Assembly: GCA_964485235.1 (NCBI GenBank)
Contig: CAZAIO010000004.1
Span: 1 to 48,262, forward strand
Direction: 5' to 3'
Length of the DNA stretch: 48,262 bases
DNA from: an uncultured Dehalococcoidales bacterium
Lineage (GTDB): Bacteria; Chloroflexota; Dehalococcoidia; GIF9; UBA5629
The notes beneath the pieces are model-generated. The model worked only from the letters and a program-made list of their open reading frames with translations, ran no database searches and was not told the origin of the DNA. Shown piece by piece: positions 3,759-25,587 of the stretch (its first letter is position 1; every line of letters begins with the position of its first letter). A program made the translations under genes and the position numbers.

Positions 3759-3768
3759 GGGTTCCGCT

Positions 3769-5455: not shown

Positions 5456-5506
5456 ACGGTTCACGTTAACAATCGATAGCATAATTCCTTAAAGGATGGT
5501 GATAGA

Positions 5507-6007
5507 GTGAAGTTAAAGGGAAAAGTCCATAAATACGGTACTAATGTCGATACCGATGCCATCATCCCTGCGCGGTATCTAAATATATCTGATCCGATCG
5601 GGTTAGCCGGACATTGTATGGAGGATATAGATTTAGATTTTATAAAACGGGTGGAAGCAGGCGATATAATCGTTGCCGATACCAATTTCGGCTGCGGCTC
5701 ATCGAGAGAGCATGCTCCTGTGGCAATTAAAGCTGCGGGTATCTCATGTGTGATCGCAAAAAGCTTTGCCCGGATTTTCTTTCGTAATGCAATAAATATA
5801 GGCTTACCGCTCCTTGAGAGCGTGGAAGCTGTCGATTCTACTGAACAGGGCGATGTGCTTGAAGTTGACCTTGCTACGGGGAAGATAACGAATGTCACTA
5901 AAAATAAGACGTTTACTTCCGAACCGTACCCCGATTTTATGATGGGCATTGTAAATGCCGGGGGTCTTGTAGAGTACACCAGGAAAAAACTAGACGGAGG
6001 ATTATAA
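5507..6007 (+). CDS. leuD: 3-isopropylmalate dehydratase small subunit
   Basis: A 166-aa aconitase swivel domain carries [14 protein letters not shown]. It lies directly downstream of leuC. Confidence 0.9.
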
Positions 6008-6008
6008 C

Positions 6009-7109: not shown

Positions 7110-7119
7110 AAGCTGAATA

Positions 7120-8709
7120 ATGGGAATAATTAAGATATATGACACTACATTAAGGGACGGAGCCCAGCAGGAGGGTATCTCGTTCGGTGTTGCCGATAAG
7201 CTGAATATAATCGGAAAACTGGATGAGCTTGGCGTGCACTATATTGAAGGAGGATGGCCCGGAGGGAACCCTAAAGATACCGAGGTATTCACGAAGGCGC
7301 AAAGTCTCACCCTGAAGAATTCGGTACTCGTCGCATTCGGAAGCACACGGCGACATGATTCTATTACGGAAGAAGATGCCACGCTCAATGCGCTTGTCGC
7401 CGCGAAGACCAGCACGGTAACGATCGTGGGAAAAAGCTGGGACATGCAGGCGACTAATGTGCTTGAAGTAAGCCTTGACGAAAACCTCAGCATGATAGGC
7501 GATTCGGTGGCGTATTTGAAATCGAAAGGGCTTATTGTATTCTTCGATGCGGAGCACTACTTCGACGGATTTAAAGCGAATCCGGAATATGCCTTAAGAA
7601 CAGTTGAAGTAGCGTATGATGCCGGTGCCGATTGCGTGGTACTGTGTGATACCAACGGCGGATCACTCCCTGCGGAAATCGCGGTTGCCGTTGAGGCGGC
7701 AAAAGAAAAAGTCGATTGTGCGCTTGGGATTCATGTTCATAATGACTCGGATCTGGCGGTAGCGAATACGCTGATGGCAGTGCAGTGCGGTGTAACCCAG
7801 GTACAGGGGACAATTAACGGGTACGGAGAGAGGTGCGGCAATGCGAACCTCTGTTCGATCATTCCGAATATCCAGCTCAAGCTTGGACTTCCCTGTCTTT
7901 CCGATGAACATCTTGCCGAACTCACGAGTGTATCCCGGTATGTGGCAGACCTGGCAAATATCGCTCTTTTCAGCCATCTTCCCTATGTCGGATCGAGCGC
8001 CTTTACACATAAAGCGGGGCTGCATGTTTCAGGAATGATGAAATGGGAAAACAGCTATCAGCATATAAATCCTTTGCTGGTCGGAAACAGTCCGCAGGTA
8101 GTCGTCTCGGAGCTTTCCGGCAAAGGGAATATCTTGTATAAAGCAAAAGAGCTTGGCGTCAATCTCCCGCCCAGGGGGAAAATGGCACGACAGGTGCTCG
8201 AACAGATAAAATCGCTGGAAAGCCACGGGTTCCAGTTCGAGGGGGCCGATGCTTCCTTCGAACTGTTGTTGAGCCGCGCTCAACCGGACTACAAACCTTT
8301 CTTTGAGCTGATCGATTATATGGTGATAATGGAACGTCACCGGCGGCAGCCCACGTCCGGTCTTACCAACCTGCTTTCCGAAGCTACCGTAAAGGTAAAA
8401 GTCGGCGGGAAAGTAATGCATACGGCATCCGAAGGCAACGGTCCTGTCAACGCCCTCGATCAGGCACTCCGGAAGGCATTACTGGAGTTTTATCCTGAAC
8501 TGGCGACGATCAAGCTGGTGGACTATAAAGTTCATATTCTTGAGGAAAGCAGCGGCACTGCCTCACAGGTACGGGTGCTCATCGAATCGCGAGATAACGG
8601 AGTGCAATGGAAGACTGTGGGCAGTTCTACCAATATCATTGAAGCGTCATGGCTGGCGCTGGTTGACAGTCTTGAATACCCGCTATATAAACGAAAAGCC
8701 GGTATTTAG
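7120..8709 (+). CDS. cimA: (R)-citramalate synthase (CimA-type LeuA paralogue)
   Basis: IYDTTLRDGAQQEGISF, HVHNDSDLAVANTL and a C-terminal LeuA-dimer domain are present (529 aa). The DGAQ variant, the length and a position after leuB fit the citramalate route to 2-oxobutyrate. Distinguishing it from a second IPMS needs a phylogeny. Confidence 0.75.
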   Translation: MGIIKIYDTTLRDGAQQEGISFGVADKLNIIGKLDELGVHYIEGGWPGGNPKDTEVFTKAQSLTLKNSVLVAFGSTRRHDSITEEDATLNALVAAKTSTVTIVGKSWDMQATNVLEVSLDENLSMIGDSVAYLKSKGLIVFFDAEHYFDGFKANPEYALRTVEVAYDAGADCVVLCDTNGGSLPAEIAVAVEAAKEKVDCALGIHVHNDSDLAVANTLMAVQCGVTQVQGTINGYGERCGNANLCSIIPNIQLKLGLPCLSDEHLAELTSVSRYVADLANIALFSHLPYVGSSAFTHKAGLHVSGMMKWENSYQHINPLLVGNSPQVVVSELSGKGNILYKAKELGVNLPPRGKMARQVLEQIKSLESHGFQFEGADASFELLLSRAQPDYKPFFELIDYMVIMERHRRQPTSGLTNLLSEATVKVKVGGKVMHTASEGNGPVNALDQALRKALLEFYPELATIKLVDYKVHILEESSGTASQVRVLIESRDNGVQWKTVGSSTNIIEASWLALVDSLEYPLYKRKAGI

Positions 8710-8733
8710 ATATACACTTACAGTTTCTGCAAT

Positions 8734-8773
8734 ACCGGACTGCCGTTGTTTCCGGTCTGTGATTATTGTTTTG
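8734..8773 (+). terminator. Weak hairpin plus T-rich tract after cimA
   Basis: ACCGGA (8734-8739) pairs with TCCGGT (8751-8756) across an 11-nt loop, followed by CTGTGATTATTGTTTTG. The stem is short, so this is tentative. Confidence 0.25.
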
Positions 8774-8783
8774 CTGTCTGCTT

Positions 8784-9458
8784 ATGAAAACTGCAGTTTA
8801 CGGTGAAAATAACTCCTCTGACATACTTTTCCTTTCAGGATGGGGGAACAGGATCGGCGATCCCAATATGGGATGGTTGTTCGACCTGCTCGTAAACGAT
8901 GGCTATAGAGTACACGTGTTTGAGTTTCCCTGCAATATAAAGGACTTCAACCGGGAATACCTGGAACCTGTGAAAGCGTATCAGGAAGCACTTGGTCCGC
9001 ACGTCATATTATCTCATAGCCTCGGTGGACTGGTTGCCGCGTATTGTTCGACTCAAACAAAGTCGGTGTACCTGAGTCCCTGGTGGGGACTGTATGGAGG
9101 TAAGTTAAGAGGCATGACGCTCTCTCTGGCATGCAGCTTAAGGTCCAGCCTCTGTATGTTTCCTATAGATTTCACCAGGGATGAGGTGGGCGACCTTGCT
9201 ACGGACGAATACTGGAAAGCCCTTCCAAAGAAGGTATCGCCGTTATTTGTCCGCGAAATCGCAAAAGCGCAAAAAGCGATGCCTGCTCTACAACAGGACC
9301 ATGTCGTCTTTTGTTCGTTGAAAGATACTATCATAGACTTGAAAGCGATTGGTGAAAGGACGCATAACATCAGGCTTTACAAGGGGCACCATGAGTTTTT
9401 TTCATCTTCTACAAGAGAACATCACGGCGACGAAATATTAAACGCTTTAAAAGAATAA
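8784..9458 (+). CDS. Alpha/beta-fold hydrolase
   Basis: The nucleophile elbow is HSLGG (GxSxG). Later Asp (KDTIID) and His (GHHEFF) candidates complete a possible triad. The start is uncertain (TTG 8766 or ATG 8784) and there is no clear SD. Confidence 0.55.
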   Translation: MKTAVYGENNSSDILFLSGWGNRIGDPNMGWLFDLLVNDGYRVHVFEFPCNIKDFNREYLEPVKAYQEALGPHVILSHSLGGLVAAYCSTQTKSVYLSPWWGLYGGKLRGMTLSLACSLRSSLCMFPIDFTRDEVGDLATDEYWKALPKKVSPLFVREIAKAQKAMPALQQDHVVFCSLKDTIIDLKAIGERTHNIRLYKGHHEFFSSSTREHHGDEILNALKE

Positions 9459-10424: not shown

Positions 10425-11879
10425 TCAGCCTTTGATGATACCGAGCGGGTAAGTCCTGGCTACTTTCCGTGATATTCCGGCACGGTGTGCTACTTCCACA
10501 ACTTCTTTCACGTCTTTATATGCCTGGGGTGCTTCTTCAGCAAGCGATGCCATATCGGCGGTTTTGACGGTGATCCCCTTTCGTTCCAATTCGCGTGCTA
10601 TATCGTTTCCTCTCATGCTGCGCCTGGCTGCACCGCGACTCTGCAATCTCCCCGCGCCGTGGCAAGTCGAGCCGAAGCTCTCTTCCATAGCCTTTTCAGT
10701 ACCTACCGCTATATAGGAATAGCGTCCCATATCGCCCGGTATGAGCACGGGCTGGCCGATACCTTTGTACCGTTGCGGCAACGCGTCGTGTCCCGGCGGA
10801 AATGCCCTGGTAGCGCCTTTCCGGTGTACGCACAGCGATATCTTTTTCCCGTTCACCATGTGGTCTTCTATTTTGGCTATATTGTGGCTTACGTCGTATA
10901 TCTGATGTATTTCCAGTTCGGTATGGCTTTTTCCGAACGTATTGACCAGTGACTCACGGACCCAGTGGGTGATGCATTGACGGTTGGTCCAGGCGAAATT
11001 TGCTGCGCATGCCATTGCCGCAAGGTAGTCTTTTCCCTCCTGCGATGTGGTAGGAGCACAGGCAAGCTGCCGGTCAGGGAGTTCGATGCCGTATTTTTTC
11101 ACAGCTGCACTCATTGTCCGGAGATAATCGTCGCAGATCTGGTGCCCGAAACCGCGTGAACCGGTGTGGATCAGGATCAGTACCTGGTCCTCCTTTTCGA
11201 TGCCCATTGCAGCGGCTGTCCTGTGGTCGTGGATTTCTTTAACCACCTGTACTTCAAGGAAGTGATTGCCGGAGCCGAGTGTTCCTAGCTGGGGCAGTCC
11301 CCTCTGCCTTGCCCTTGGGCTGACCTTATCGGGATTTGCCCCTTTCATGCAGCCTTTTTCTTCGGTCACGTCAATGTCTTCCGTAATTCCCATTCCCCTG
11401 TTGATCGCCCAGCCGGCGCCTTCGACCATTACTTTTTCCAGCTCTTTTTCGGATATCTTGAACTTGCCTTTCGATCCCAGCCCGGACGGTACATTATTGA
11501 ACAGGTTTTCGATCAGTTTACGCATTTTCGGCAGTACTTCACTGTATGTAAGTCCTGTACGGAGCAACCTTACTCCGCAGTTGATATCATAACCGACACC
11601 GCCCGGTGAGATTACTCCATCGGTCATACGTGTAGCAGCTACGCCGCCGATGGGAAAACCGTATCCCCAGTGGATATCAGGCATGGCAAGAGAGCGGCTT
11701 ACAATGCCGGGCAGGAATGTTACATTAGCAACCTGCTCAATCGACTGGTCGCTCTTTATGGTTTCCATCATTGCCTCATCGGCATATATCAAGCCGGGCA
11801 CTCTCATTCCCTGCCTGTAACTTGTCGGGATCTCCCAGCGATAGTCGTCCAGTTTGTTTAACGGTATATCCTGTGACAT
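10425..11879 (-). CDS. rtcB: RNA 3'-phosphate/5'-OH ligase RtcB
   Basis: DIHWGYGFPIGGVAA, GYDINCGVR, GSGNHFLEVQ, HTGSRGFGHQ and STCHGAGR are RtcB metal- and GMP-site motifs (484 aa). Confidence 0.92.
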   Translation of the reverse strand: MSQDIPLNKLDDYRWEIPTSYRQGMRVPGLIYADEAMMETIKSDQSIEQVANVTFLPGIVSRSLAMPDIHWGYGFPIGGVAATRMTDGVISPGGVGYDINCGVRLLRTGLTYSEVLPKMRKLIENLFNNVPSGLGSKGKFKISEKELEKVMVEGAGWAINRGMGITEDIDVTEEKGCMKGANPDKVSPRARQRGLPQLGTLGSGNHFLEVQVVKEIHDHRTAAAMGIEKEDQVLILIHTGSRGFGHQICDDYLRTMSAAVKKYGIELPDRQLACAPTTSQEGKDYLAAMACAANFAWTNRQCITHWVRESLVNTFGKSHTELEIHQIYDVSHNIAKIEDHMVNGKKISLCVHRKGATRAFPPGHDALPQRYKGIGQPVLIPGDMGRYSYIAVGTEKAMEESFGSTCHGAGRLQSRGAARRSMRGNDIARELERKGITVKTADMASLAEEAPQAYKDVKEVVEVAHRAGISRKVARTYPLGIIKG

Positions 11880-11892
11880 AAAACGGTTCTTT

Positions 11893-12312
11893 CTATATAT
11901 CGAAAATTATCTGTGCGCTGTATGTATTTTGCTCTTTACTGAGCGCGAGCATATGGTAAGTGGCTGCCTTGATCTCTCTTTTTACCCTGTGACGCTGAAA
12001 AGCGATCCTGTCGCCGAAACAGGTGGCATTGATTGTTGCGTCGTGCACATTGTTGACTTCTACCTTTTTAAAGAGGATATGCTCTACATCGAAAATATAG
12101 AGCAGTTCGTTCAGCCATTCGACAAGAAGGTTCTCATCGTCGTCGGAGACGATCACGATATCCCGTTTGATATTGTCGCCGATATCATCGAGGTCGACGA
12201 TAAGGCTTGTCATGCCGGCAGCCGCATTGGCGAAAAGGTGCTCGACATCCGGGCCGTAGGCGACAATGCCGATGTCCGCGGTGTGGTCCAGTACCTCGAA
12301 AGCCTTCTCCAC
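11893..12312 (-). CDS. Archease (RtcB activator)
   Basis: FEVLDHTADIGIVAYG ... LLVEWLNELLY ... IKAATYHMLAL ... IIFDI matches the archease family. The ORF track starts at 12375, but AGGGGG followed 6 nt later by GTG (12312) and an extended -10 at 12340-12348 argue for the shorter roughly 140-aa protein. Confidence 0.8.
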   Translation of the reverse strand: MEKAFEVLDHTADIGIVAYGPDVEHLFANAAAGMTSLIVDLDDIGDNIKRDIVIVSDDDENLLVEWLNELLYIFDVEHILFKKVEVNNVHDATINATCFGDRIAFQRHRVKREIKAATYHMLALSKEQNTYSAQIIFDI

Positions 12313-12339
12313 ACTCAACCCCCTGGTCGAGGATGCCTT

Positions 12340-12348
12340 ATTATACCA
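12340..12348 (-). promoter_or_regulatory. Candidate extended -10 promoter element for archease-rtcB
   Basis: The reverse strand reads TGGTATAAT, about 25 nt upstream of the AGGGGG SD and GTG 12312. Confidence 0.35.
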
Positions 12349-12380
12349 TGCACGTATATACCTGAAAATCATCACGTAGC

Positions 12381-14048: not shown

Positions 14049-15170
14049 ATGAATCAGATATTGATTGTGGATGATGATCCTGATATCCTGCGCTTGCTGA
14101 AGACCGGTCTGAGCAAGGCCGGATTCGAGGTGACCGAAGCGCAGAATGCAGACATTGCGCTTTCAGAGATCGCTAGAAACAAGCCCGACCTGGTCATTAC
14201 AGATGCGATGATGCCGGAGAAGGACGGATATATGCTGTCGAAGGAATTGCGAAGTATGCCCGAAACGGGGGCGCTTCCGATTATTATGCTCACCGCGTTG
14301 CAGGAGGAACAGGACGCACTTAAAGCTTATAAGGACGGGATCGACGATTTTATAACGAAGCCGTTCAGTATGGCAATATTGCGGGCGCGTGTCAATGCCT
14401 TGCTCAACAGGGCATATTCTTGCGGGCAGATACAGACTGCACCGCCTATACAGGTAGAAGAGGTGAAAAAACCGTTACCCGTACAGAGAATAAGCACGGG
14501 GTATTCGAAGCTGGACAGAGCTCTGGGAAATGGCATACCGGTAGGCAGCAATGCCATCGTGATAGGCCCGACCGGAGCGGGCAAGAGCACTATTGCACGA
14601 CAGTTCATTGCAGAGGGAATTACAAATAATGAAAGATGTATGGTAATTACCGTCGATGACGATCCGGCAATGATACGGAGCAGTCTGGATGAGATTATTC
14701 CCGGAACGCTTGAGAGTTATGAGAATAAAGACTATTTCCGGCTGGTGGACTGTTATAGTTGGAGCCGCGGCCTTGTCGGAGGAAAAGAGAGATTCGCCGT
14801 TACCGGCGCTATGGAGTTGAACCAGCTTGCAGGGCTGATATCCGACGCTGGTGTGGAACTGGGACAGACAGTACAGGAAAAATTCGGCGGCAGGAGGATC
14901 GTTGATTCTGTCAGCAGCCTGTTTATCGATTTTGAGCTTGCTTCCGTACAACGTTTTCTGGTGCAACTTGCGCGCACAGCATCCAACTACGGAGGTGTTT
15001 CTACCCTGTTTATACTTGAAGAGGGCTCTGTGAGCGAGCAGGTGCTCAATAATATAAAATACCTTATGGATATAGTGCTTGAGGTAAAATTCGATGGGGC
15101 GCATATGGTGAGAGTGGCGAACATGAAGTGGTCCAGGTTCTCCAGAGATTGGATATCCCTCGAAGACTAG
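14049..15170 (+). CDS. Response-regulator receiver domain fused to a KaiC-like (RecA-superfamily) ATPase domain
   Basis: The N-terminal receiver has ILIVDDDPD, the acceptor DLVITDAMMP, MLTAL and ITKPF. The C-terminal part has RISTGYSKLDRALGNGIPVGSNAIVIGPTGAGKST (Walker A) and RRIVDSVSSL (Walker B), which is the KaiC/RadA-like fold. Confidence 0.75.
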   Translation: MNQILIVDDDPDILRLLKTGLSKAGFEVTEAQNADIALSEIARNKPDLVITDAMMPEKDGYMLSKELRSMPETGALPIIMLTALQEEQDALKAYKDGIDDFITKPFSMAILRARVNALLNRAYSCGQIQTAPPIQVEEVKKPLPVQRISTGYSKLDRALGNGIPVGSNAIVIGPTGAGKSTIARQFIAEGITNNERCMVITVDDDPAMIRSSLDEIIPGTLESYENKDYFRLVDCYSWSRGLVGGKERFAVTGAMELNQLAGLISDAGVELGQTVQEKFGGRRIVDSVSSLFIDFELASVQRFLVQLARTASNYGGVSTLFILEEGSVSEQVLNNIKYLMDIVLEVKFDGAHMVRVANMKWSRFSRDWISLED

Positions 15171-15223
15171 CGCCTGTCGTCTGAACGTTTTTGAAATGAA
15201 AGGTTTGGGAGGAGGTAAAGGCA

Positions 15224-15526
15224 ATGAGTACATTTCTTGAAAAATATCCTGAACTGCTTGATCTGGGGGAGGATGAAGCTAAGGTCTACGGTTTTCTCAA
15301 TGTGGAAGGAGAATCGTCGGCTAAAGTAATCAGCAGCGGTTGTGATATTCCTTATTCCAAAATTCACAGGGTGCTGTACCGGCTGCAACAGCAGGACCTT
15401 TTGGTAAGCAGAGGAGAAGCACCTAAACTTTTCGCAGTACGTTTTAAAGACCCGGATTTGAACAAACGGTATATGCAGGAGCAGCAAAGCAAAGGTAAAA
15501 GTAATGATAAAGGACGGGTGCCGTAA
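15224..15526 (+). CDS. Small winged-helix DNA-binding protein, TrmB-family-like HTH only
   Basis: The 100-aa protein contains LGEDEAKVYGFLNVEGESSAKVISSGCDIPYSKIHRVLYRLQQQDLLVS, which resembles the N-terminal wHTH of TrmB-type regulators. GGAGGAGG SD is present. Its stop overlaps the next start (TAATG). Confidence 0.5.
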   Translation: MSTFLEKYPELLDLGEDEAKVYGFLNVEGESSAKVISSGCDIPYSKIHRVLYRLQQQDLLVSRGEAPKLFAVRFKDPDLNKRYMQEQQSKGKSNDKGRVP

Positions 15527-16230
15527 TGAAACAGATAACGAGAATATCGACCGGTATTCCCGGTCTTGACGAGATCATAGAAGGCGGATTTCCGAGAGGC
15601 AGAACGATACTGGTTACCGGCACTGCCGGTTCGGGGAAAACAACTTTCGGTATGCAATTTCTTTATGAAGGGGCTGTGAAATACAATGAAGCCGGTCTCT
15701 TTGTTACGCTCCAGGAGGAATTGGATGATGTCATTCAGGATATGGACAGATATGGATGGGACCTCGAAAAGCTGGTCGGTGAAAATAAAATCGGGCTTGT
15801 TCAACCTCCAACACCGTTCGAGATAAGTAACGAAGTTATTGATATCGATACAATGCTGGACCTTATTCATAAAAAAGCAATGGCTATCGATGCGAAACGT
15901 ATTGTATTCGACTCATTGGCCCAATTGGGACTTCCATATTCCGATATAGTAGCATTGAGACGCGACATAATGAGACTTGGTGCAATGTTACGTGAGCTCG
16001 GTTGTACTACATTGCTGCTTACGGAAATGCTGGAAAGCGGCGGAAGCATCAGCAGGTATGGCGTCGAGGAATTCGTTACTCAGGGCGTTATTGTGATGCA
16101 TCTTGCTCCTACTTACAGGGCGGTACAGGTTTCAAAATTACGCGGGACCAATCATGATACCGGCCTTCACCGTATGCGTATCACCGGAAAAGGTATCGTC
16201 GTTGTGCCCGGTGAGACGCCGTTCTCATAA
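15526..16230 (+). CDS. Stand-alone single-domain KaiC-like ATPase
   Basis: ISTGIPGLDEIIEGGFPRGRTILVTGTAGSGKTTFGMQFLYEGA (Walker A), LFVTLQEE (catalytic Glu pair position) and KRIVFDSLAQL (Walker B) are present. The protein is 234 aa. Confidence 0.75.
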   Translation: MKQITRISTGIPGLDEIIEGGFPRGRTILVTGTAGSGKTTFGMQFLYEGAVKYNEAGLFVTLQEELDDVIQDMDRYGWDLEKLVGENKIGLVQPPTPFEISNEVIDIDTMLDLIHKKAMAIDAKRIVFDSLAQLGLPYSDIVALRRDIMRLGAMLRELGCTTLLLTEMLESGGSISRYGVEEFVTQGVIVMHLAPTYRAVQVSKLRGTNHDTGLHRMRITGKGIVVVPGETPFS

Positions 16231-16257: not shown

Positions 16258-18096
16258 ATGAGTACCTTTATTGAACACTGGTCGATTGTCATTATTCCGG
16301 TTTTCGCATTTGCGGTAGTAGTATCGCTCTGGTATATCTTGTGGAGAGTTGGCTGGACTGCCTATAACCGGTGGGTACGCAAGAGTGGTTGGGTACAGAG
16401 TCACGTTATTTCCCGCGCTGCGAAATGGCCGTCTTTTTTCTGGGGTGTGCTCCTCGGTGTTGCGGTTTCGCTGACCGTTTCAAACCTGCCGGCAGGCTGG
16501 AAATCACTTGTATGCGATATTTTATGGAGTGCACTGGTTGTCTATATTACGTGGATTATCGTGCAGGTGAGCAATACGCTGCTGAACTTTTATCTCACGA
16601 GACTGAAAATTGAGGCCAGAATCATTTCCGGAGCAAAGAAAGCCGTTATTATAGTTGCCTGCTTTGTTGCTGCGCTGGTCATTTTGAATTTCTGGGGATA
16701 TACCACCGCAACGCTGCTGTTTGTCGTAGCTGTCTTTGTTTTGTTTGCACTGCTTCCGATACGTGATATGCTTCCCGACGTGTTGGCCGGATTTCACCTT
16801 TCTACCACGTGGCAGATAAAAAAACAGGACTATATCAAACTGGGCACGGGGGAGGAGGGATACGTTAATGAGATCGGCTGGATGAGAACTCAACTCAGGG
16901 CTCCGGATGATACTATTCTCCTTGTAGCCAACAGTAAGATAACCGGTACAACCGTAACCAATCTGGGACCGCACTCGATGAAAATCGAGTATGACAAGTT
17001 AAAAATATATACCGACAGAATTGAAGCGCTTATGCAGGAGATCGCCAACCAGAGAGATGAAATTCAGGCAATTCTCTCCAGCATGGCCGAGGGAATTGTC
17101 GTCCTGGATCCTGCCAACCGTGTGATCTCGTTAAATCCTGCAGCGGAGAAATTGCTCGGCGACGATGCACGTGAAGCTGTTGGAAAGGAGATCCAGTATT
17201 ATTTATCTGTCGACCGGAAAGATTTCACCGATACACTGATCAAGCAAAGTACCGGTGAGATGCCTTTGCTGCGGAAGAGGCTCGGCGACCGCGTATTAAG
17301 CATTGCCGTACAATCAGTGGAAAGCGGTGATACTCAGACCGGGAAAACAGTACTTGCTATTCGTGATATTACCGAGCTCGACCGTGTAGACCAGATGAAA
17401 TCGGAGTTTGTTTCCATGGTCTCTCATGAGCTGCGCACACCCTTGACATCGATAAAAGGTTACGTGGATATGGTATTCGACGGTGAGGCAGGGGCGATTA
17501 ATGAAGAGCAAAAGAGCTATCTCGAAGTGGCAAGAAGCAATACAGACCGTCTTATCGACCTGGTGAACGAGCTTCTCGATATTTCACGAATTGAAGCAGG
17601 AAGAATTGAACTGAAATTAAGAGCTGTTCCAATCCAGGACATTGTGCATTCGGTTGCTGTATCGCTACGTACCCAGATGGACGATAGCAATATCCGCTTG
17701 AAACTCGATATACCCGAAAGCCCTGTGATTGTATTTGCCGATGCGGGACGTATGACCGAAATTCTCACCAATCTGATTATTAATGCGAACCACTATTCAC
17801 CGTCCGGCGCTTCTATAACGGTCTCGATACATGTTTACGACGGAAAGGTACAGGTGGATGTAGCGGATACCGGAATCGGTATTGCACCTGAGGATGTGGA
17901 AAAAATATTCAACAAATTCTACCGTGTCGATAATTCTATTACGAGACAGGTCGGCGGGACAGGTCTGGGGCTGGCGGTAACGAAATCCCTCGTGGAGCTG
18001 CATGGCGGGCAGATCTGGGTAAAAAGCAGTCCCGGCGTAGGGAGTACTTTCAGTTTTACAGTACCGTTAGTGCCGGATGAAAACCCTACCGGCTAA
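16258..18096 (+). CDS. Sensor histidine kinase with an N-terminal MscS-like membrane/beta domain, coiled coil, PAS, HisKA and HATPase
   Basis: About five TM segments are followed by ALLPIRDMLPDVLAGFHL...QDYIKLGTGEEGYVNEIGWMRTQLRAPDDTILLVANSKITGTTVTNLG, the MscS TM3b plus beta-domain pattern. A PAS domain follows (ILSSMAEGIVVLDPANRVISLNPAAEKLLG). Then come the H-box SHELRTPLTSI, N-box NLIINANHYSP, G1 DTGIGI and G2 GGTGLGL. Confidence 0.85.
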   Translation: MSTFIEHWSIVIIPVFAFAVVVSLWYILWRVGWTAYNRWVRKSGWVQSHVISRAAKWPSFFWGVLLGVAVSLTVSNLPAGWKSLVCDILWSALVVYITWIIVQVSNTLLNFYLTRLKIEARIISGAKKAVIIVACFVAALVILNFWGYTTATLLFVVAVFVLFALLPIRDMLPDVLAGFHLSTTWQIKKQDYIKLGTGEEGYVNEIGWMRTQLRAPDDTILLVANSKITGTTVTNLGPHSMKIEYDKLKIYTDRIEALMQEIANQRDEIQAILSSMAEGIVVLDPANRVISLNPAAEKLLGDDAREAVGKEIQYYLSVDRKDFTDTLIKQSTGEMPLLRKRLGDRVLSIAVQSVESGDTQTGKTVLAIRDITELDRVDQMKSEFVSMVSHELRTPLTSIKGYVDMVFDGEAGAINEEQKSYLEVARSNTDRLIDLVNELLDISRIEAGRIELKLRAVPIQDIVHSVAVSLRTQMDDSNIRLKLDIPESPVIVFADAGRMTEILTNLIINANHYSPSGASITVSIHVYDGKVQVDVADTGIGIAPEDVEKIFNKFYRVDNSITRQVGGTGLGLAVTKSLVELHGGQIWVKSSPGVGSTFSFTVPLVPDENPTG

Positions 18097-19622
18097 GGTG
18101 TCCTCCCGTAAAGCATGGTCATTTCTTTCAATCTTTCCTTCATATTGTCTGTAAGCATATCGAATGTAAAGCGCCAGATCCAGTTCCCCGATGTCGTGCC
18201 GGGAAGATTCATCCGCGCTTCGCTTCCTAAACCGAGTATATCCTGCATGGGGAAGATAGCTGTGTCTGCAATAGACATGGATGCGAGTCTAATAAAGTCC
18301 CAGTTTATCTCATGACCGTCTGTGCCGATATAACGCAAAGCAAGCTGGCGCTCCTCATCGCTTTCTTTTTTTTCCAGCGTCGTCCGCCCTATGTCGCCTC
18401 CTGCGAACCATCCGATTGTAGTATTATTATCGTGAGTCCCTGTGTATGCCACACAATTCCTGACATAGTTATGCGGTTTATAATCATCGGCTTTCGGGTC
18501 GTTTCCGAAAGCAAATTGCAGTACTCTCATCCCCGGAATATTAAATTGCTCGCGTAGTGCGTCTACTTCGGGAGTTATTACACCAAGGTCCTCTGCAATT
18601 ATCGGAAAAGATCCCAATGCCTTTCCTATAGCTTTGAATAGTTTGACGCCGGGCGTAGGGACCCATCGGCCGTTCCTGGCTGTCGTATCTTTGCCGGGTA
18701 TTTCCCAGTATTTTTCGAATCCGCGAAAATGGTCGATGCGGATAATATCGACCAGCGAACGTGTTGCCTGCACACGTTCGATCCACCATGTGAACCCGTC
18801 CTGTTCCATAACATCCCATCGATAGATAGGATTTCCCCATAGTTGCCCGTTATCGCAGAAGTAGTCGGGTGGTACTCCTGCAACAACGAGAGGTTTTCCC
18901 TGTTCATCGAGCTGAAACATCTCTGGATTTACCCATACTTCGGCGCTATCGAGCGAAATAAATATAGGGATATCGCCGATAAAGTGGATTCCGTGTATGT
19001 TACAGTACTGTTTTAATTCCGACCATTGTTTGAAAAACTGGTACTGAAGATAGTGATAATACAGGATGTCGTCGGACAATCGGGCGTTCCATATTTTTAT
19101 CGCCTCCGGTTTCCTCCATTTGATATCGTCGTCCCATTCATTCCAGCTAATAAGGCCGTGCGCGTCTTTTATCGCCATATATGATGAATACAATTCAAGC
19201 CATGCGGCGTTTCGACTACAAAAATCATTGAATGCATCCTGTTGTGCTTTTTTCGTTCCCTTTTTAAAACTCTCGAACGATTTCCGGAGTATCCTGTTCT
19301 TGAAATTTATCACGGCGTTATAATTTACACTATCATCGTGAAAGAGCGGCAGGTCATTGAGGTCGCTATGGTTTAAAAGGCCTTCCTCAAACAGCCTTTC
19401 AGGGCTTATAAGCAGGTGGTTACCCGCTCTGCTGGAGAGACACTGGTATGGTGAACTACCGTAACCTGTGGGGCCAAGCGGCAGTACCTGCCACAATCGT
19501 TGTCCTGTTTGTATCAATAAATCTGCAAACCGGTAGGCTTCTTTGCCCAGGTCGCCTATGCCGAAACGTCCGGGAAGTGAGGTAGGATGAAGCAGGATCC
19601 CGCTTTTTCTTATATCTGACAT
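18093..19622 (-). CDS. malQ: 4-alpha-glucanotransferase (amylomaltase, GH77)
   Basis: SGILLHPTSLPGRFGIGDLG, IIRIDHFRGF, IIAEDLGVITPEV and YTGTHDNNT are GH77 catalytic-region motifs (509 aa). Confidence 0.9.
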   Translation of the reverse strand: MSDIRKSGILLHPTSLPGRFGIGDLGKEAYRFADLLIQTGQRLWQVLPLGPTGYGSSPYQCLSSRAGNHLLISPERLFEEGLLNHSDLNDLPLFHDDSVNYNAVINFKNRILRKSFESFKKGTKKAQQDAFNDFCSRNAAWLELYSSYMAIKDAHGLISWNEWDDDIKWRKPEAIKIWNARLSDDILYYHYLQYQFFKQWSELKQYCNIHGIHFIGDIPIFISLDSAEVWVNPEMFQLDEQGKPLVVAGVPPDYFCDNGQLWGNPIYRWDVMEQDGFTWWIERVQATRSLVDIIRIDHFRGFEKYWEIPGKDTTARNGRWVPTPGVKLFKAIGKALGSFPIIAEDLGVITPEVDALREQFNIPGMRVLQFAFGNDPKADDYKPHNYVRNCVAYTGTHDNNTTIGWFAGGDIGRTTLEKKESDEERQLALRYIGTDGHEINWDFIRLASMSIADTAIFPMQDILGLGSEARMNLPGTTSGNWIWRFTFDMLTDNMKERLKEMTMLYGRTP

Positions 19623-19647: not shown

Positions 19648-20979
19648 TTATAGAGGACATACCAGTACGGCAATTTCCGCAGGTTTGAGCACTATCATTG
19701 TACCGGCAGGCAGCACCCCTGACGACGATACTTCCTTTCTACAGGGATAATAAAGCCTTTGCACGGTATCCGGTGAGGTAAAATGTGTAATATCGACCGG
19801 CACGGGGTTATCCCATTTTTTATTTATCATAAGAAAAGCTTTCATGTCCGGCTGAAGATCTGATTGTCTTTCCAGTATGGTAATGTCATCGTTGACAACA
19901 GCGAATTTAATTATACCTTCGCCTTGGAACAATGGATGATCGAGTTTAAACCGGTTCGTCTCCTTGATAAAATGTTGAATATCGAAAAGCGGTGTTTCCC
20001 AATCGGACGGGCGCGTGGAGACTACGTCGGTCTTTTTCCTGAAGCCGTATTCATAGCCTATGGGAGCCATTAAACCGGCGGAAAAAAAGGAGGCAAAAGC
20101 ATATCGCTGTTTTTGTACTGCTTCATTACCGTTTGTATCCTGAGCCAGCCTGGTAGTATCGTGCGTTTCCGGAAATGATATGGACGGCGCTATTTTACCG
20201 AACATTTCATGTTGTTCGATACACCACGCTTGTTCAAAGTCCCACCATTTTGAGCTGTTGAAGAAGAAATGCAGCCCTGCAGACTTGAGCGCGAGCGCTT
20301 CATCTTCTGTACATCCGAGCGTCTCGGCAAAGAAAAGGACTTCCGGGTCGATTGCGATTGCTTCTTTGATGAGATAGCTCCAGAGGTCCGAGGGTACTTT
20401 ATACGCAGCGTCACATCGAAATCCCTTGAATCCGAGCCGCTGGTAGAAAACGATTAAATCAGCCCAGTATTTCCACAGGTTCTCTTTTTCGTTTGAATGC
20501 CTGTTATCGATCTCGGCAAGATCGCCCCACACGGTTACTTTACCCGGATCGTCAGGGTCAACCGCGTAAGGACTGGTTATCTTTCCATGGTCATCATGTA
20601 CGTACCACTCGGGATGCTCGACGGTGAGAGGACAATCCCGTGCGGTATGATTTATTACAAGGTCGATCATGGGCAGGATACCAAGTTTCATACACCTGTC
20701 AAGCAATTGTCTCAGGAGATCTATTCCATCTCCAGAATCGGGCGGGAGAAAATCGGGATTGATCCGATAATGATCTTTGATAGCATAGAGGCTCCCTGAG
20801 AAACCTGAATAGAATATCGGATTAATGAAAAGCCAGTTGAAGTTCATATCGATAGCGCGTTCGATATGTGTGTACCAGTCCGGCAGAGGGCCTGCAAGAC
20901 GGGGAAAAAGGTTATAAATAATCGGTACCTGTTTCAAGTTATCCACTATCAGTCCGTTTCCTTTCTCCTGTTTTAACAA
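19648..20979 (-). CDS. GH13 alpha-amylase-family protein, GlgE-like catalytic core without the GlgE N-terminal domains
   Basis: IYNLFPRLAG..MNFNWLFINPI..DLVINHTARD..HPEW..GFRCDAAYKVP..FFAETLG..FPETHDT runs parallel to the motif order of the GlgE encoded at 21926. The true start is probably GTG 20946, which follows AGGAGAAAGGAAA and lies downstream of the predicted promoter, rather than TTG 20979. Confidence 0.7.
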   Translation of the reverse strand: MLKQEKGNGLIVDNLKQVPIIYNLFPRLAGPLPDWYTHIERAIDMNFNWLFINPIFYSGFSGSLYAIKDHYRINPDFLPPDSGDGIDLLRQLLDRCMKLGILPMIDLVINHTARDCPLTVEHPEWYVHDDHGKITSPYAVDPDDPGKVTVWGDLAEIDNRHSNEKENLWKYWADLIVFYQRLGFKGFRCDAAYKVPSDLWSYLIKEAIAIDPEVLFFAETLGCTEDEALALKSAGLHFFFNSSKWWDFEQAWCIEQHEMFGKIAPSISFPETHDTTRLAQDTNGNEAVQKQRYAFASFFSAGLMAPIGYEYGFRKKTDVVSTRPSDWETPLFDIQHFIKETNRFKLDHPLFQGEGIIKFAVVNDDITILERQSDLQPDMKAFLMINKKWDNPVPVDITHFTSPDTVQRLYYPCRKEVSSSGVLPAGTMIVLKPAEIAVLVCPL

Positions 20980-21070: not shown

Positions 21071-21763
21071 TTATTCCGTCAGATAGTAGCTTCGTAACGG
21101 TTTTAAATCACCGTCAAGCTCGTATATCAGCGGGATGCCCGTAGGTATGTTTAAATTCGGGATATCTTTGTCTGATATTGAATCGAGATATTTCACCAGC
21201 GCGCGCAGGCTGTTTCCGTGTGCCGATATTATGACCCGTTTTCCCGCCATTAACTGTGGAGTGATTGTAGAATGCCAGTACGGCAGGAAACGGTTTACAG
21301 TGTCCTTGAGGCTCTCGGTATAGGGGACATTTGATTTGTCTACATCTTTATATCTCGGGTCGTTTCCGGGGTAACGCTTGTCTGTTTTCTTTAGCTCAGG
21401 CGGACGTACATCGTAGCTTCTTCTCCATATGTGTACCTGTTCATCTCCGTACTTCTCTGCCATTTCCGTCTTGTTCAATCCCTGGAGCGCGCCGTAATGC
21501 CGTTCATTTAATCGCCAGGACAGGTTAACCGGAATCCACATCAGGTCCATTTCGTCAAGAACGATCCATAAAGTACGTATCGCTCTTTTCAGGACGGACG
21601 TGAAAGCGAGATCGAAAGTGTACCCGTGTTCTTTAAGCAGCTTGCCAGCCTGATGGGCTTCCGAAATTCCTTTTTCTGAAAGGTCGACATCTGTCCATCC
21701 GGTGAAGAGGTTCTCCTTATTCCAGATACTTTCACCGTGTCGTACTAATACCATTTGTAACAT
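21071..21763 (-). CDS. gpmA: 2,3-bisphosphoglycerate-dependent phosphoglycerate mutase
   Basis: [38 protein letters not shown] and [11 protein letters not shown] are present (230 aa). AAGAGG SD precedes the start. Confidence 0.92.
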
Positions 21764-21925: not shown

Positions 21926-23911
21926 GTGGTGATGATGAAGCCGAAGAATAGTGCAATTGTAATTGAAAATATATATCCCGAACTCGATTCGGGACGATAT
22001 CCGGTAAAACGTATTGCCGGAGAGCCGGTTAATGTATCCGCTGATATATTTAAAGAAGGTCATGATATTTTGTCAGCGGTCTTGAAATACCGCAGTAAAA
22101 AGGATACCGCGTGGCAGGAAATTCCGATGAGAGAAGGAGATAACGACCGGTGGTATGCTGAGTTTGTTCCGGTTGAGAATACCCGTTATGTTTACACCAT
22201 AGAAGCATATACCGATGTTTTCAGTTCCTGGAAGCGTAGCTTTATTATTAAAGCTGAAGCAGGAGAGGATATCGCCGGTGAATTGTTGGAGGGACAGCGA
22301 ATAATTGATGAGGCAATTGTGCGAGTGTCCGACAAAGACGGCAGAAAGCTCTCGACTTTTTTACAGGACCTGCGTAGCGCGGGCGATCAAATAGAGGCTG
22401 TCAGAATTGTAAGCAGCGAACAACTCGACCATATCATGGCGGAATGTCCCGATAAAAGCGATGCCATAGTTTATGACAGGGAACTGGATGTGATAGCCAA
22501 CCGGAAGCCGGCAGGATTTGCGGCGTGGTACGAAATGTTTCACCGGTCCCAGGGCAAAGTGCCCGGGAAAAGCGCTACATTCGCCGATTGCGAACAACGA
22601 CTGGCGGAAATCAAAAAAATGGGTTTCGACGTAATTTATTTGCCCCCAATCCATCCGATCGGCATGACTAACAGGAAAGGGCGTAATAATAAGGAAAAAG
22701 CAGGCCCCGGTGATCCGGGAAGCCCGTGGGCTATAGGAAATAGCCTTGGGGGGCATAAGTCTGTCAATCCGGAACTCGGCACGCTGGACGATTTCAAACA
22801 ATTTGTAAGCGCAGCAAATGCGCTGGATATCGAAATAGCACTGGACCTTGCCATCCAGTGTTCTGCCGATCATCCTTACCTGATAGAGCATCCGGAATGG
22901 TTTTTCAAGCGGCCGGACGGCTCGATCCGCTATGCAGAAAATCCTCCGAAGAAGTATCAGGATATCTATCCATTGAACTTTTACTGTGAGCAAAATGAAG
23001 CGCTCTGGGATGAATTAAAAAGCATCGTGCTCTTCTGGATAGAGTGCGGGGTGAAGACATTTCGTGTCGATAATCCCCATACAAAACCGTTTCAATTCTG
23101 GGAGTGGCTTATCGCGGACATACAGGAAACGTATCCTGATGTGATATTTCTGGCTGAGGCATTTACACGGCCAAAGGTGCTTAATTTCCTCGCAAAAGCC
23201 GGTTTCACGCAATCTTATACTTATTTTACGTGGCGTAATTTTAAGGAAGAGCTTATAGAATATATGACCGAACTTACTCAGTCCGGCCTCGCCGAGTATT
23301 TACAGGGAAATCTCTTTACAAACACTCCGGATATTTTACCCCCCATATTACAACGTGGAGGAAAGCCCGCTTTTAAAATGAGGCTTGCGCTTGCGGCAAC
23401 GCTTTCACCGGTATATGGTATTTATAATGGTTTCGAGTTGTGTGAGAATAGGGCCATTCCCGGCACTGAGGAATACCTGAATTCAGAGAAATATGAATAT
23501 AAAATCTGGGACTGGGATCGACCTGGAAATATTAAAGACTATATTGCAAGGATAAATACGATCAGAAAGGAAAATACTGCGCTTCAAGCTAACAGAAATC
23601 TTCGTTTTTATGATTCCGATAACGAAAATATACTGTTTTACGGCAAGGTATCGACAGCCAAAGACAATCTCATTTTTGTTGTGGTCAACCTCGACCCGTT
23701 TCAGATGCATGAGTCGACAATAACGATTCCTGTGGAAGAATTCGGCATCAGCAGTCACGAAAAATATATGGTTGATGAGTTGATAACGGGTACGACATAT
23801 TTATGGACGGGGAATACCCAGAAGATCACGCTCGACCCTGAAGTGGAGCCTGCAATGATCCTTCGCGTATCGCGATGGGCATATAAGGACTATGATACAC
23901 CCTGTTATTAA
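21926..23911 (+). CDS. glgE: Alpha-1,4-glucan:maltose-1-phosphate maltosyltransferase
   Basis: IENIYPELDSGRYPVKR, WYEMFHRS, MGFDVIYLPPIHPIGMTNRKGRNN, ENPPKKYQDIYPLNF, FRVDNPHTKP and FLAEAFT closely follow actinobacterial GlgE as I recall it. The start lies within 21926-21935, and ATG 21935 has the best spacing to AGGTGG. Confidence 0.9.
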   Translation: MVMMKPKNSAIVIENIYPELDSGRYPVKRIAGEPVNVSADIFKEGHDILSAVLKYRSKKDTAWQEIPMREGDNDRWYAEFVPVENTRYVYTIEAYTDVFSSWKRSFIIKAEAGEDIAGELLEGQRIIDEAIVRVSDKDGRKLSTFLQDLRSAGDQIEAVRIVSSEQLDHIMAECPDKSDAIVYDRELDVIANRKPAGFAAWYEMFHRSQGKVPGKSATFADCEQRLAEIKKMGFDVIYLPPIHPIGMTNRKGRNNKEKAGPGDPGSPWAIGNSLGGHKSVNPELGTLDDFKQFVSAANALDIEIALDLAIQCSADHPYLIEHPEWFFKRPDGSIRYAENPPKKYQDIYPLNFYCEQNEALWDELKSIVLFWIECGVKTFRVDNPHTKPFQFWEWLIADIQETYPDVIFLAEAFTRPKVLNFLAKAGFTQSYTYFTWRNFKEELIEYMTELTQSGLAEYLQGNLFTNTPDILPPILQRGGKPAFKMRLALAATLSPVYGIYNGFELCENRAIPGTEEYLNSEKYEYKIWDWDRPGNIKDYIARINTIRKENTALQANRNLRFYDSDNENILFYGKVSTAKDNLIFVVVNLDPFQMHESTITIPVEEFGISSHEKYMVDELITGTTYLWTGNTQKITLDPEVEPAMILRVSRWAYKDYDTPCY

Positions 23912-23937: not shown

Positions 23938-25587
23938 ATGGAAACTGAAAATAATTTATGGTTCAAAGATGCCGTGTTCTATGAACTGCACGTTCGAGCA
24001 TTCTATGACGCGAATAACGACGGTAAGGGGGATTTCGAAGGCCTTACTCAGAAGTTGGACTATGTTAGAGATCTGGGTGTCGATTGTATATGGCTGCTGC
24101 CTTTTTATCCTTCGCCACTCAAGGACGACGGATACGATATTGCCGATTATCTCAATATACATCCCGATTATGGCGATATGCGGCATTTCCAGAAATTTCT
24201 CGAAGAGGCGCACAATAGAAATATAAGAGTAATCGCTGACCTTGTGGTTAATCACACTTCAGATCAGCATTACTGGTTTCAGGAAGCGCGAAGATCACCG
24301 GAATCTCCCATGCACAACTACTATGTCTGGAGCGATACTCCTGATAAATATAAGGATGCGCGAATAATATTCATCGATACTGAAAAGTCCAACTGGACAC
24401 TGGACTCGGTTACCAATAAATATTACTGGCATCGCTTTTTCAGCCATCAGCCTGATCTTAACTACGATAATGAAGAAGTTCAGAAAGCCATGTACGATAC
24501 TGCAGTGTACTGGATGGACAAAGGTCTCGACGGGCTACGGTGTGATGCCGTGCCTTATCTGTTCGAGAGGGATGGGACTAACTGTGAAAACCTGCCGGAG
24601 ACCCACGCTTTTTTCAGGGAACTGCGGTCAAAAATAGATAGCAAATATTCCGATAAAATTTTACTTGCAGAAGCCAATCAGATGCCACAGGATGTGTGCA
24701 AGTATTTCGGTTCGGGGGATGAGTTCCATATGTCATTTCATTTTCCCCTGATGCCTCATATGTTCATGGCGCTGGCAAGGGAAAACCGGCAACCTATAGT
24801 AGATGTTATGACACGCACGCCGACGATACCGTACAATTGCCAGTGGGGGCTTTTTCTACGTAACCACGATGAAGTGACTCTGGAAATGGTAACCGAGTTG
24901 CAGCGTCTTTATATGTGGTATACATATGCGAACGAGTCTGCGATGCGTCTTAATCTGGGAATCCGTCGCAGACTGGCGCCGTTGCTGGATAATGACCGTC
25001 GTAAAATAGAGCTTCTTAACAGCATTCTTTTTACCATGCCGGGCAGTCCTGTCCTTTATTACGGAGATGAAATCGGTATGGGTGATAATATTCACCTTGG
25101 CGATCGTAACGGTGTACGTACTCCCATGCAATGGTCTGTCGATAGGAATGCCGGATTTTCGCAGGTAGACCCGGAGCGGCTATATTTGCCGGTAATAAGC
25201 AATCCTATTTACGGATATCAGGCGATCAATGTCGAATCTCAGCAAAGGACACCGAGCTCATTGCTTAATACGATGAAAAAACTTATCGGGATACGAAAGC
25301 AGCATAAAGTTTTCGGCCGGGGAGCTATCGAATTCCTGAAACCAAGAAATAGCCGTGTCCTTGCATATATTCGCAGCTATAACGATGAAACTATACTCGT
25401 GGTGAATAATCTGGCGGACTCGTCTCAACCGGTGGAGCTCGATATGAAAAGGTTTGAAGGAGCGATACCCGTTGAGATGCTTGGAGAAACACGTTTCCCG
25501 CGTATAGGCGAATTGCCTTATATGTTGACGCTGAGCCCGTACGGATTCTACTGGTTTCGACTTGAATACAGGCAGAAACGGGTGTAG
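23938..25587 (+). CDS. treS: Trehalose synthase / maltose alpha-D-glucosyltransferase (GH13), not fused to maltokinase
   Basis: WFKDAVFYELHVRAFYDANNDGKGDFEGLTQKLDYVRDLGVDCIWLLPFYPSPLKDDGYDIADY, DLVVNHTSDQH, GLRCDAVPYL, LLAEANQ and LRNHDE are present (549 aa). Confidence 0.9.
   Translation: METENNLWFKDAVFYELHVRAFYDANNDGKGDFEGLTQKLDYVRDLGVDCIWLLPFYPSPLKDDGYDIADYLNIHPDYGDMRHFQKFLEEAHNRNIRVIADLVVNHTSDQHYWFQEARRSPESPMHNYYVWSDTPDKYKDARIIFIDTEKSNWTLDSVTNKYYWHRFFSHQPDLNYDNEEVQKAMYDTAVYWMDKGLDGLRCDAVPYLFERDGTNCENLPETHAFFRELRSKIDSKYSDKILLAEANQMPQDVCKYFGSGDEFHMSFHFPLMPHMFMALARENRQPIVDVMTRTPTIPYNCQWGLFLRNHDEVTLEMVTELQRLYMWYTYANESAMRLNLGIRRRLAPLLDNDRRKIELLNSILFTMPGSPVLYYGDEIGMGDNIHLGDRNGVRTPMQWSVDRNAGFSQVDPERLYLPVISNPIYGYQAINVESQQRTPSSLLNTMKKLIGIRKQHKVFGRGAIEFLKPRNSRVLAYIRSYNDETILVVNNLADSSQPVELDMKRFEGAIPVEMLGETRFPRIGELPYMLTLSPYGFYWFRLEYRQKRV

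Follow-up and report, generated by a model that had tools for sequence, protein, structure and literature searches.

A histidine kinase with a cage-less MscS-like membrane module, encoded beside trehalose and alpha-glucan genes in an uncultured Dehalococcoidales bacterium

The window analysed, meaning the whole stretch of DNA, comprises 48,262 nucleotides (nt) of contig CAZAIO010000004.1 (assembly GCA_964485235.1) from an uncultured Dehalococcoidales bacterium of the Chloroflexota. At positions 16258-18096 of the + strand lies a gene that is open over 612 codons and complete, based on the list of open reading frames (ORFs) and the translation. It encodes a histidine kinase whose N-terminal part corresponds to the core of the mechanosensitive channel MscS, including the transmembrane (TM) helix 3 segments TM3a and TM3b and the beta-domain, with a helix standing in place of the MscS cytoplasmic cage. 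The DHp domain named below carries the phospho-accepting histidine. The parts of the gene, with the AlphaFold2 (AF2), Foldseek or profile evidence for each, are as follows.

16258-18096, + strand: whole protein, a cage-less MscS module followed by a PAS-HisKA-HATPase_c histidine kinase (ORF, Pfam)
16258-16692, + strand: residues 1-145, four N-terminal TM helices (2-43, 48-74, 79-115, 120-145), a lipid-facing 'paddle' like that of YnaI (AF2, Foldseek)
16702-16809, + strand: residues 149-184, MscS TM3a (pore-helix equivalent, TTATLLFVVAVFVLFALL) and TM3b (PIRDMLPDVLAGFHL) (HMMER alignment, clade comparison)
16825-16971, + strand: residues 190-238, MscS beta-domain, from QDYIKLGTGEEGYV to TNLGP (PF00924, AF2 strands)
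16972-17064, + strand: residues 239-269, junction and heptad-repeat signalling helix in place of the MscS cage (AF2)
17059-17376, + strand: residues 268-373, cytoplasmic PAS domain (PF00989 with PAS_9 and PAS_4)
17395-17601, + strand: residues 380-448, HisKA (DHp) domain with phospho-acceptor H390 (PF00512, motif position)
17740-18069, + strand: residues 495-604, HATPase_c catalytic domain (PF02518, motifs)

In the Pfam search, PF00924 (MS_channel_2nd) matched residues 171-236 with E=1.9e-11 and 44.3 bits, well above the gathering cut-off of 20.2. The PAS domain was found as PF00989 at residues 268-337 (E=7.9e-8, 32.7 bits against a cut-off of 22.6) and as PAS_8 (28.7 bits), with PAS_9 and PAS_4 matches reaching residue 373, followed by HisKA (PF00512, residues 380-448, E=2.5e-21) and HATPase_c (PF02518, residues 495-604, E=6.4e-31). 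Neither PF21082, the C-terminal cage domain of MscS, nor PF21088 (TM2/3) was matched by this protein in the same search. An exact look-up of the protein returned no record.

When residues 1-245 were compared with all sequences of the Protein Data Bank (PDB) using phmmer, the matches were MscS-family channels only, with E=6e-6 for Thermoanaerobacter tengcongensis MscS (3t9n) and E=3.5e-4 to 6e-4 for Escherichia coli MscS; HMMER alignments of the sensor cover E. coli, T. tengcongensis and Helicobacter pylori MscS. In the printed alignment, E. coli residues 30-179 (TM3a, TM3b and beta-domain) pair with residues 87-237 of the query. The AF2 monomer model of residues 1-270, built on 43 homologues (pLDDT 86.8), has helices at 2-43, 48-74, 79-115, 120-145 and 151-184, then a five-stranded beta-domain at 191-238 and a helix at 239-269. 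All 50 Foldseek hits listed against the PDB were MscS-family chains, at a probability of 1.00, MSL1 among them. The five-TM channel YnaI aligned over 231-248 columns and all five helices (TMq 0.51-0.55), closed forms of E. coli MscS superposed across about 150-165 columns with a root-mean-square deviation of 3.1-4.3 Å, and the best target-normalised fold match was MscS of Trypanosoma cruzi (TMt 0.78). Six Lys/Arg residues lie in loop 30-58 and four in loop 107-127, so that by the positive-inside rule the N-terminus is predicted to lie outside, with a cytoplasmic location for the beta-domain, PAS and kinase. The protein thus has the kinked TM3a/TM3b helix and the conserved beta-domain of the MscS family and is missing the cage, with its C-terminal alpha/beta domain, barrel and side portals; helix, PAS and kinase come directly after the beta-domain. 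The architecture of an MscS core plus kinase is confirmed, far beyond chance. A first-pass annotation, made from the letters alone, had read about five TM helices, a motif-by-motif correspondence to TM3b and the beta-domain of E. coli MscS, and a coiled coil, PAS, HisKA and HATPase in place of the cage, and it holds up on each of these points: the five long predicted helices and the YnaI match support the first, the profile match, alignment register and structural comparison the second, and the domain order and helix 239-269 the third.

The kinase belongs to a conserved family. A search with residues 241-612 revealed at least 16 sequence clusters carrying PF00924, PAS, HisKA and HATPase_c, of which P0235 and P0237-P0250 are 606-620 residues long, P0240 excepted at 578. 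Members appear under public names such as 'mechanosensitive ion channel [Chloroflexi bacterium]' and 'ATP-binding protein [Chloroflexota bacterium]', from two sources, and the named ones come from Chloroflexota metagenome-assembled genomes (MAGs). Across the 16 full-length members, identity to the window protein was 33-79% in the sensor and 56-83% in the kinase. W146, G147, R169, D174 and G178 were invariant, as were D191, Y192, L195, G198-E-E-G201, N225, N235 and G237 in the beta-domain. The next-best kinases (≤46% identity) have REC, GAF or HAMP modules instead of the MscS module.

Queries with the sensor only had retrieved three kinase relatives in a word-indexed search and one in an exhaustive search, and the fusion was first read as extremely rare. 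This was overturned by the clusters found with the kinase-half query; the apparent rarity stemmed from word indexing and from clustering at 50% identity, which collapses the family. A scan of GTDB genomes with the pattern [GQ]DYIKL[GE][TA]G found no kinase fusion, but in most family members DYIKL is preceded by H, N, R or K and the pattern misses them, so this null result was not counted as absence. A metagenome scan with linker patterns confirmed no member.

Compared with an 80%-identical orthologue at locus L078, dN/dS was 0.10 for the sensor, 0.11 for the linker and PAS, and 0.08 for the kinase (dS about 1.1-1.3), which indicates that all three parts of the gene are under purifying selection. 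These values bear on the explanation that the gene is a mis-assembled or frameshift-joined product, or a decaying pseudogene. One distant relative does have a broken frame: at L077 (219-1974) an MscS-kinase homologue, 47-56% identical, is split over three frames through frameshifts or Logan assembly errors, with MalQ still convergent downstream. The uninterrupted architecture of 606-620 residues, however, occurs on many independent contigs from NCBI, JGI, ENA and Logan, all catalytic motifs are intact and dN/dS is about 0.1. An artefact is therefore extremely improbable, and it was rejected.

The same membrane module is joined to other outputs. Outside the kinase family, the sensor is closest to a group of proteins, about 460 residues long, that combine PF00924 with DUF5752 and share 32-39% identity with it. 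They were found at loci L005-L034, L046 and L050, mostly in Dehalococcoidia/Chloroflexota, but also in MAGs labelled Deltaproteobacteria and Thermodesulfovibrio; those at L011 and L018 have about 150 extra N-terminal residues. In GTDB genomes, tblastn placed OtsA at 24 of 26 DUF5752-fusion loci, OtsB at 25 of 26 and a TreT-like glycosyltransferase (GT) at 23 of 26, in the order otsA-otsB-(MscS/DUF5752)-GT, in some cases with TetR upstream and TrkH/TrkA downstream. An AF2 model of one DUF5752 fusion (pLDDT 83) matched OrfY of Thermoproteus tenax (PDB 4cso, deposited as 'OrfY protein, transcription factor') with a Foldseek E=1e-14 and TMt of 0.77-0.79, and phmmer gave E=1.6e-21. In six further clusters (P0025, P0166 and P0168-P0171; about 320-363 residues) the module is fused to a GerE/LuxR helix-turn-helix (HTH), apparently forming a membrane-bound one-component regulator.

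The nearest cage-bearing relatives often lie inside the same type of operon, with OtsA present in 20 of 44. Full-length caged MscS proteins with the GDYIKLETGEEG motif were observed inside otsA-otsB-treT-like operons or beside them, arranged as otsA-MscS-otsB or with MscS ahead of otsA-otsB (L026, L029, L032-L039, L044, L047-L049 and L057), mostly in Omnitrophota and Planctomycetota MAGs. A related arrangement has been described in T. tenax, where the msc-gt-tpsp operon encodes a 197-residue truncated MscS-like protein with a proposed role in trehalose efflux, and where the mechanosensitive channel (MSC) of the operon impaired growth of E. coli in an osmolarity-dependent manner; its authors regarded this organisation as unique to Thermoproteales (PMC3634074). 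The MscS-trehalose operon linkage thus extends to bacteria (Chloroflexota, Omnitrophota, Planctomycetota and others), and DUF5752/OrfY, which has a solved structure and no assigned function, gains a genomic context from the cage-less fusions in trehalose operons.

In the kinase half, H390 lies within the H-box SHELRTPLTS, which also contains the E/T phosphatase motif, and the boxes of the Bergerat-fold ATPase are all intact (N 505-513, G1 537-542, F 551-556, G2 566-573). A PAS fold is present between the membrane module and the DHp domain. The junction helix starts two residues past the last beta-strand in the AF2 model, and segment 239-269 ranks among the most conserved of the whole protein. 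The pattern S240-x-K-x-E-Y-D-x-L-K-x-Y-x-D-x-I-E-x-L258 is invariant in the 16 family members (S240, K242, E244, Y245, D246, L248, K249, Y251, D253, I255, E256, L258). Direct reading of the sequence shows hydrophobic residues at heptad a/d positions 248, 251, 255, 258, 262, 269, 272 and 276, namely the invariant L248, Y251, I255 and L258 and then I262, I269, I272 and M276, a pattern consistent with the signature of a coiled-coil signalling helix.

These features bear on the possibility that the MscS part is a mere anchor or scaffold, with the signal entering through the PAS domain (as a trehalose/glucan metabolite or redox signal) or from KaiC-like ATPases. Such a role would suit a PAS domain that occurs in every family member, KaiC-like proteins that are always co-encoded, and a kinase part (residues 250-604) that in NCBIfam lies nearest to the PnpS, WalK and PhoR types of cytoplasmic-PAS HisKA kinase, with every match under its equivalog cut-off. 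A mere anchor, however, would not be expected to keep an invariant beta-domain, R169/D174/G178 and the junction over 33-79% divergence, nor a sensor dN/dS as low as that found here, and the module recurs with the PAS-free outputs GerE and OrfY. A pure anchor is thus unlikely.

The pore helix differs from that of E. coli MscS. In the alignment, E. coli A98, G101, A102, G104, A106 and G108 correspond to F155, A158, V159, V161, F163 and L165, so the Gly/Ala-rich packing of TM3a typical of the MscS family is missing, while the seal leucines L105 and L109 are kept as L162 and L166. Further along, Q112, G113, S116, N117 and G121 correspond to R169, D170, P173, D174 and G178. To place these changes, 41 cage-bearing relatives were compared with 44 cage-less ones (16 kinase, 6 GerE and 22 DUF5752 fusions). 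The Gly/Ala fraction at the six knob/hole sites was 0.75 in the cage-bearing and 0.20-0.38 in the cage-less proteins. Entropy in TM3a was 0.52 bits with the cage, compared to 1.44-1.56 bits in the kinase and DUF5752 fusions and 0.96 bits in the six GerE fusions, whereas entropy in the beta-domain was comparable (1.02 bits cage-bearing, 0.83-1.05 bits cage-less). The position of Q112 was Arg in 44 of 44 cage-less and Gln or Lys in 41 of 41 cage-bearing proteins. The cage-less MscS sensor clade, defined here as the fusions to OrfY/DUF5752, GerE or a PAS-kinase, is accordingly marked by an MscS part that ends past the beta-domain, Arg at Q112, usually Pro at S116, the motif (G/x)DYIKLxTGEEG and loss of the Gly/Ala signature; the window kinase fits it, with R169, P173 and QDYIKLGTGEEGY present. 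The lack of Gly/Ala packing that the first-pass annotation had pointed out is therefore seen both in the alignment and across the clade. In the sequences sampled, loss of the cage coincides exactly with a relaxed pore-packing constraint while TM3b and the beta-domain are still conserved, which suggests that the modules have ceased to pack tightly as heptameric pores. This coincidence is the strongest sequence-level argument against such a pore, though not proof.

The same comparison weighs on a bifunctional channel-kinase, in which a heptameric tension-gated pore would release solutes, possibly trehalose, and the kinase would report or regulate gating. The retained seal leucines and a beta-domain as constrained as in canonical channels are in keeping with it, as are two precedents: T. 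cruzi MscS is cage-less, heptameric and conducting with a Phe gate (PMC12334622), so that missing Gly/Ala alone is no proof of non-conductance, and the T. tenax trehalose-operon MSC has the osmolarity-dependent growth effect and efflux proposal mentioned above (PMC3634074). Yet TM3a shows a roughly threefold weaker constraint than its counterpart in cage-bearing relatives, and its packing positions hold the bulky residues F, A, V, V, F and L. The invariant heptad helix right after the beta-domain is easier to reconcile with a coiled coil of two strands than with a ring of seven, and the other outputs, GerE and OrfY, are of a regulatory kind and not accessories of a channel. A channel-kinase is on this evidence rather unlikely.

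The kinase gene closes a tight row of four on the + strand, in which the spacings are 53 nt, an overlap and 27 nt, and is followed by genes of trehalose and alpha-glucan metabolism. The other genes of the cassette and the first genes beyond it (Pfam assignments) are as follows.

14049-15170, + strand: REC domain (D52) fused to a KaiC/RecA-like ATPase, first cassette gene (Response_reg E=9e-30, KaiC ATPase E=2e-18)
15224-15526, + strand: TrmB-type winged-helix protein of 100 residues, lacking the sugar-binding domain (PF01978 E=3.5e-8)
15526-16230, + strand: single-domain KaiC-like ATPase of 234 residues, its start overlapping the TrmB stop and its end 27 nt before the kinase (PF06745 E=1.3e-61)
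18093-19622, - strand: MalQ, GH77
19648-20979, - strand: amylase-like (hDGE-amylase-like) protein
21071-21763, - strand: histidine phosphatase
21926-23911, + strand: GlgE
23938-25587, + strand: TreS-like enzyme
25648-26886, + strand: TreT-like GT
26910-28523, + strand: putative maltokinase, weak match

The four-gene cassette recurs in close relatives (L078-L082) and in lineages at 66% (L084), 60% (L085-87, seen on at least 24 contigs from several sources) and 63% identity (L088, Chloroflexi MAG GCA_016190585.1). The TrmB-type gene is kept in every cassette, and a KaiC-like ATPase lies directly upstream of the kinase in all relatives. The REC-KaiC-like gene is co-conserved with the kinase in all seven relatives' contigs that include it (L078, L079, L084, L085-87 and L088), and its product is a likely candidate for the cognate response regulator. 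The trio at 14049-16230, strictly co-conserved with the MscS-kinase, represents an unusual two-component output that contains no classical DNA-binding response regulator.

In the window, the alpha-glucan/trehalose island spans 18093-41367 and further on includes a GH57 branching enzyme, two more GH57 proteins, phosphofructokinase and glucan phosphorylase. Trehalose/alpha-glucan genes adjoin the cassette wherever a relative's contig extends past it, in an order that varies by lineage. L084, L085-87 and L088 have both TreS and the TreT-like GT; L078 has TreS before the contig ends, and the L079 and L080 contigs end after MalQ and the genes just beyond. GlgE and MalQ are the usual companions of the TreS and TreT-like genes near the cassette. 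Two further MscS-related observations come from these loci: a stand-alone short DUF5752-like ORF (124 residues, weak match) lies near the cassette in L085/L086 (19720-20094, - strand), and a canonical cage-bearing MscS lies near it in L088 (14789-16147, - strand), such that kinase, DUF5752-like and canonical MscS proteins recur in the same loci.

Interspersed in the island are a GNAT protein and an M20 peptidase, a 630-residue ORF with no Pfam match (32093-33985, - strand) and a GGDEF domain fused to HD (HD_5), a protein of the cyclic di-GMP turnover type (36823-38034, + strand). Elsewhere in the window, ilv/leu biosynthesis genes fill 296-8709, and RtcB RNA ligase is followed by its activator archease at 10425-12375 (- strand), a pair kept in the syntenic L078 and L082. 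SelA and SelB, of the bacterial selenocysteine machinery, lie side by side at 42563-45991 (+ strand), where a 223-residue ORF on the opposite strand (44059-44730) overlaps the selB start and is probably spurious; SelA/SelB and the GGDEF protein mark the DNA as bacterial. At the window end, a 269-residue protein (47371-48180, + strand) has Ion_trans/Ion_trans_2 matches indicating a voltage-gated-type cation channel core.

Taken as a whole, the fold, the clade comparison and the synteny make it modestly probable that the protein is a membrane-tension or osmotic sensor kinase that controls trehalose/alpha-glucan interconversion, probably with no need for conductance. We infer the stimulus (tension or osmolarity), the dispensability of conduction, the identity of the phospho-acceptor and the regulated targets. 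Under this proposal, lateral tension or a change in lipid packing, for example upon an osmotic shift, would displace the TM paddle and TM3a/TM3b with respect to the beta-domain, as happens when MscS gates. This movement would be relayed by the invariant helix via the PAS domain to the DHp and the catalytic ATP-binding domains, and would shift the balance of kinase and phosphatase activity towards the REC-KaiC-like regulator encoded in the same cassette. That regulator, acting with the KaiC-like ATPase and the TrmB-type HTH, may tune the TreS, Mak, GlgE, MalQ and TreT-like genes, and the result would be an altered balance between trehalose, a compatible solute, and alpha-glucan.

Tension sensing that does not involve conduction is indirectly favoured because the clade-wide loss of Gly/Ala coincides with loss of the cage, because the cage-less module is also fused to the LuxR/GerE HTH and OrfY/DUF5752, and because the family is genomically tied to trehalose/alpha-glucan genes. 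Since HisKA and GerE outputs are normally dimeric, OrfY is a third output and the heptad helix follows immediately, the data favour a non-heptameric, or at least non-pore, assembly of the module. A broader proposal, that cage-less MscS modules serve generally in prokaryotic signal transduction as mechanosensory input domains that do not conduct (for kinase, LuxR-type regulator and OrfY) and that the kinase turns tension directly into phosphorylation setting the trehalose/alpha-glucan balance, is possible but is put forward tentatively.

Several points weigh against a non-conducting tension sensor acting on trehalose genes. The MscS core is heptameric while HisKA kinases and heptad helices are normally dimeric, and this mismatch of seven versus two is a real conflict. 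T. cruzi MscS, cage-less and with a bulky gate residue, is still a heptameric tension-gated channel, and MscS beta-domains are static during gating (PMC12334622), which would make them a poor lever. As the L105/L109 equivalents are retained, a hydrophobic gate could persist, and the true sensor could be the PAS domain in the cytoplasm. The gene-neighbourhood link to trehalose genes is a correlation only, and promoter and terminator scans of the window gave counts no higher than in shuffled sequence, so that the operon structure rests on spacing and synteny. At L083 the GerE fusion (8001-8966) adjoins a class I methyltransferase and sugar-nucleotide genes and no trehalose genes, so that the trehalose linkage does not hold for all cage-less members.

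How turgor, osmolarity or membrane stretch comes to regulate bacterial genes has long been asked and is still not settled, and the physical stimulus of EnvZ, KdpD and similar kinases is under debate (PMC8320348). The input domain of the window protein derives from MscS, which among force-from-lipids sensors is the one understood best, and an invariant helix links it covalently to a standard kinase; a link from tension to phosphorylation is therefore directly testable with MscS tools (lysolipids, cyclodextrins, patch pressure) combined with kinase assays. The conserved linkage to TreS, GlgE, MalQ and TreT-like genes predicts a concrete output, switching between trehalose and alpha-glucan. If the proposal is true, the protein would be a force-from-lipids receptor kinase, and the MscS fold would be able to work outside its canonical heptameric pore. 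No paper was found on an MscS-kinase fusion, on DUF5752 or on the REC-KaiC/TrmB/KaiC/kinase cassette, in literature coverage that was not exhaustive, and a 2026 review of MscS-like channels lists only bCNG as a fusion and leaves kinases unmentioned (PMC13591265). The first-pass annotation knew of no characterised MscS-kinase fusion; this stands for the literature covered, although the fusion is not unique, as at least 16 uncharacterised clusters occur in public MAGs. We would regard the module both as a new class of input domain among two-component kinases and as a new branch, of non-canonical type, within the MscS family.

Compared with E. coli MscS and YnaI (MscS family, TC 1.A.23; PF00924/PF21088/PF21082), the window protein has similar paddle helices, a kinked TM3a/TM3b and a beta-domain, and conserves the MscS equivalents of L105/L109 and G121. 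It differs from both in having a kinase attached and neither alpha/beta cage nor C-terminal barrel, and from MscS in the replacement of the knob-and-hole Gly/Ala and in the changes of Q112 to Arg, G113 to Asp and S116 to Pro. The miniature MscS of T. cruzi (PDB 9bgq; PMC12334622) likewise has no cage, ends after the beta-domain and has a bulky hydrophobic pore residue; unlike the window protein, with five TM helices and a kinase known from sequence and model, it has two TM helices, no output domain and proven heptameric channel function. T. tenax TTX_1304a, from the operon msc-gt-tpsp, is likened by organisation, being an MscS-like protein in truncated form whose gene accompanies those for trehalose synthesis and for a glycosyltransferase of the GT4 type. 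OrfY of the same organism (4cso) corresponds to the DUF5752 domain fused to the sensor module in the bacterial sister group; in T. tenax, however, these parts occur as individual proteins, and a kinase is absent.

As far as is known, the cage is retained in bCNG proteins. Like the window protein, they add a cytoplasmic signalling domain to an MscS core, and a possible departure from the role of osmotic safety valve has been noted for them (PMC13591265); the added domain is a ligand-binding input there, whereas here it is an enzymatic output, a kinase that replaces the cage. EnvZ, KdpD and MtrB (PMC8320348), and DesK (PMC11237406), are also HisKA-type kinases with a proposed response to osmolarity or the physical state of the membrane. 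They are not known to use a domain with a force-from-lipids mechanism, and in the TM region they have between two and five simple helices that bear no relation to MscS. Arabidopsis MSL10 is reported to have bulky non-polar pore-helix residues and a 'nonconducting function', with signalling separable from ion conduction (PMC6261518). MSL10 differs from the window protein in being eukaryotic, in keeping the cage, in lacking a fused enzyme and in signalling by way of a soluble N-terminus of its own.

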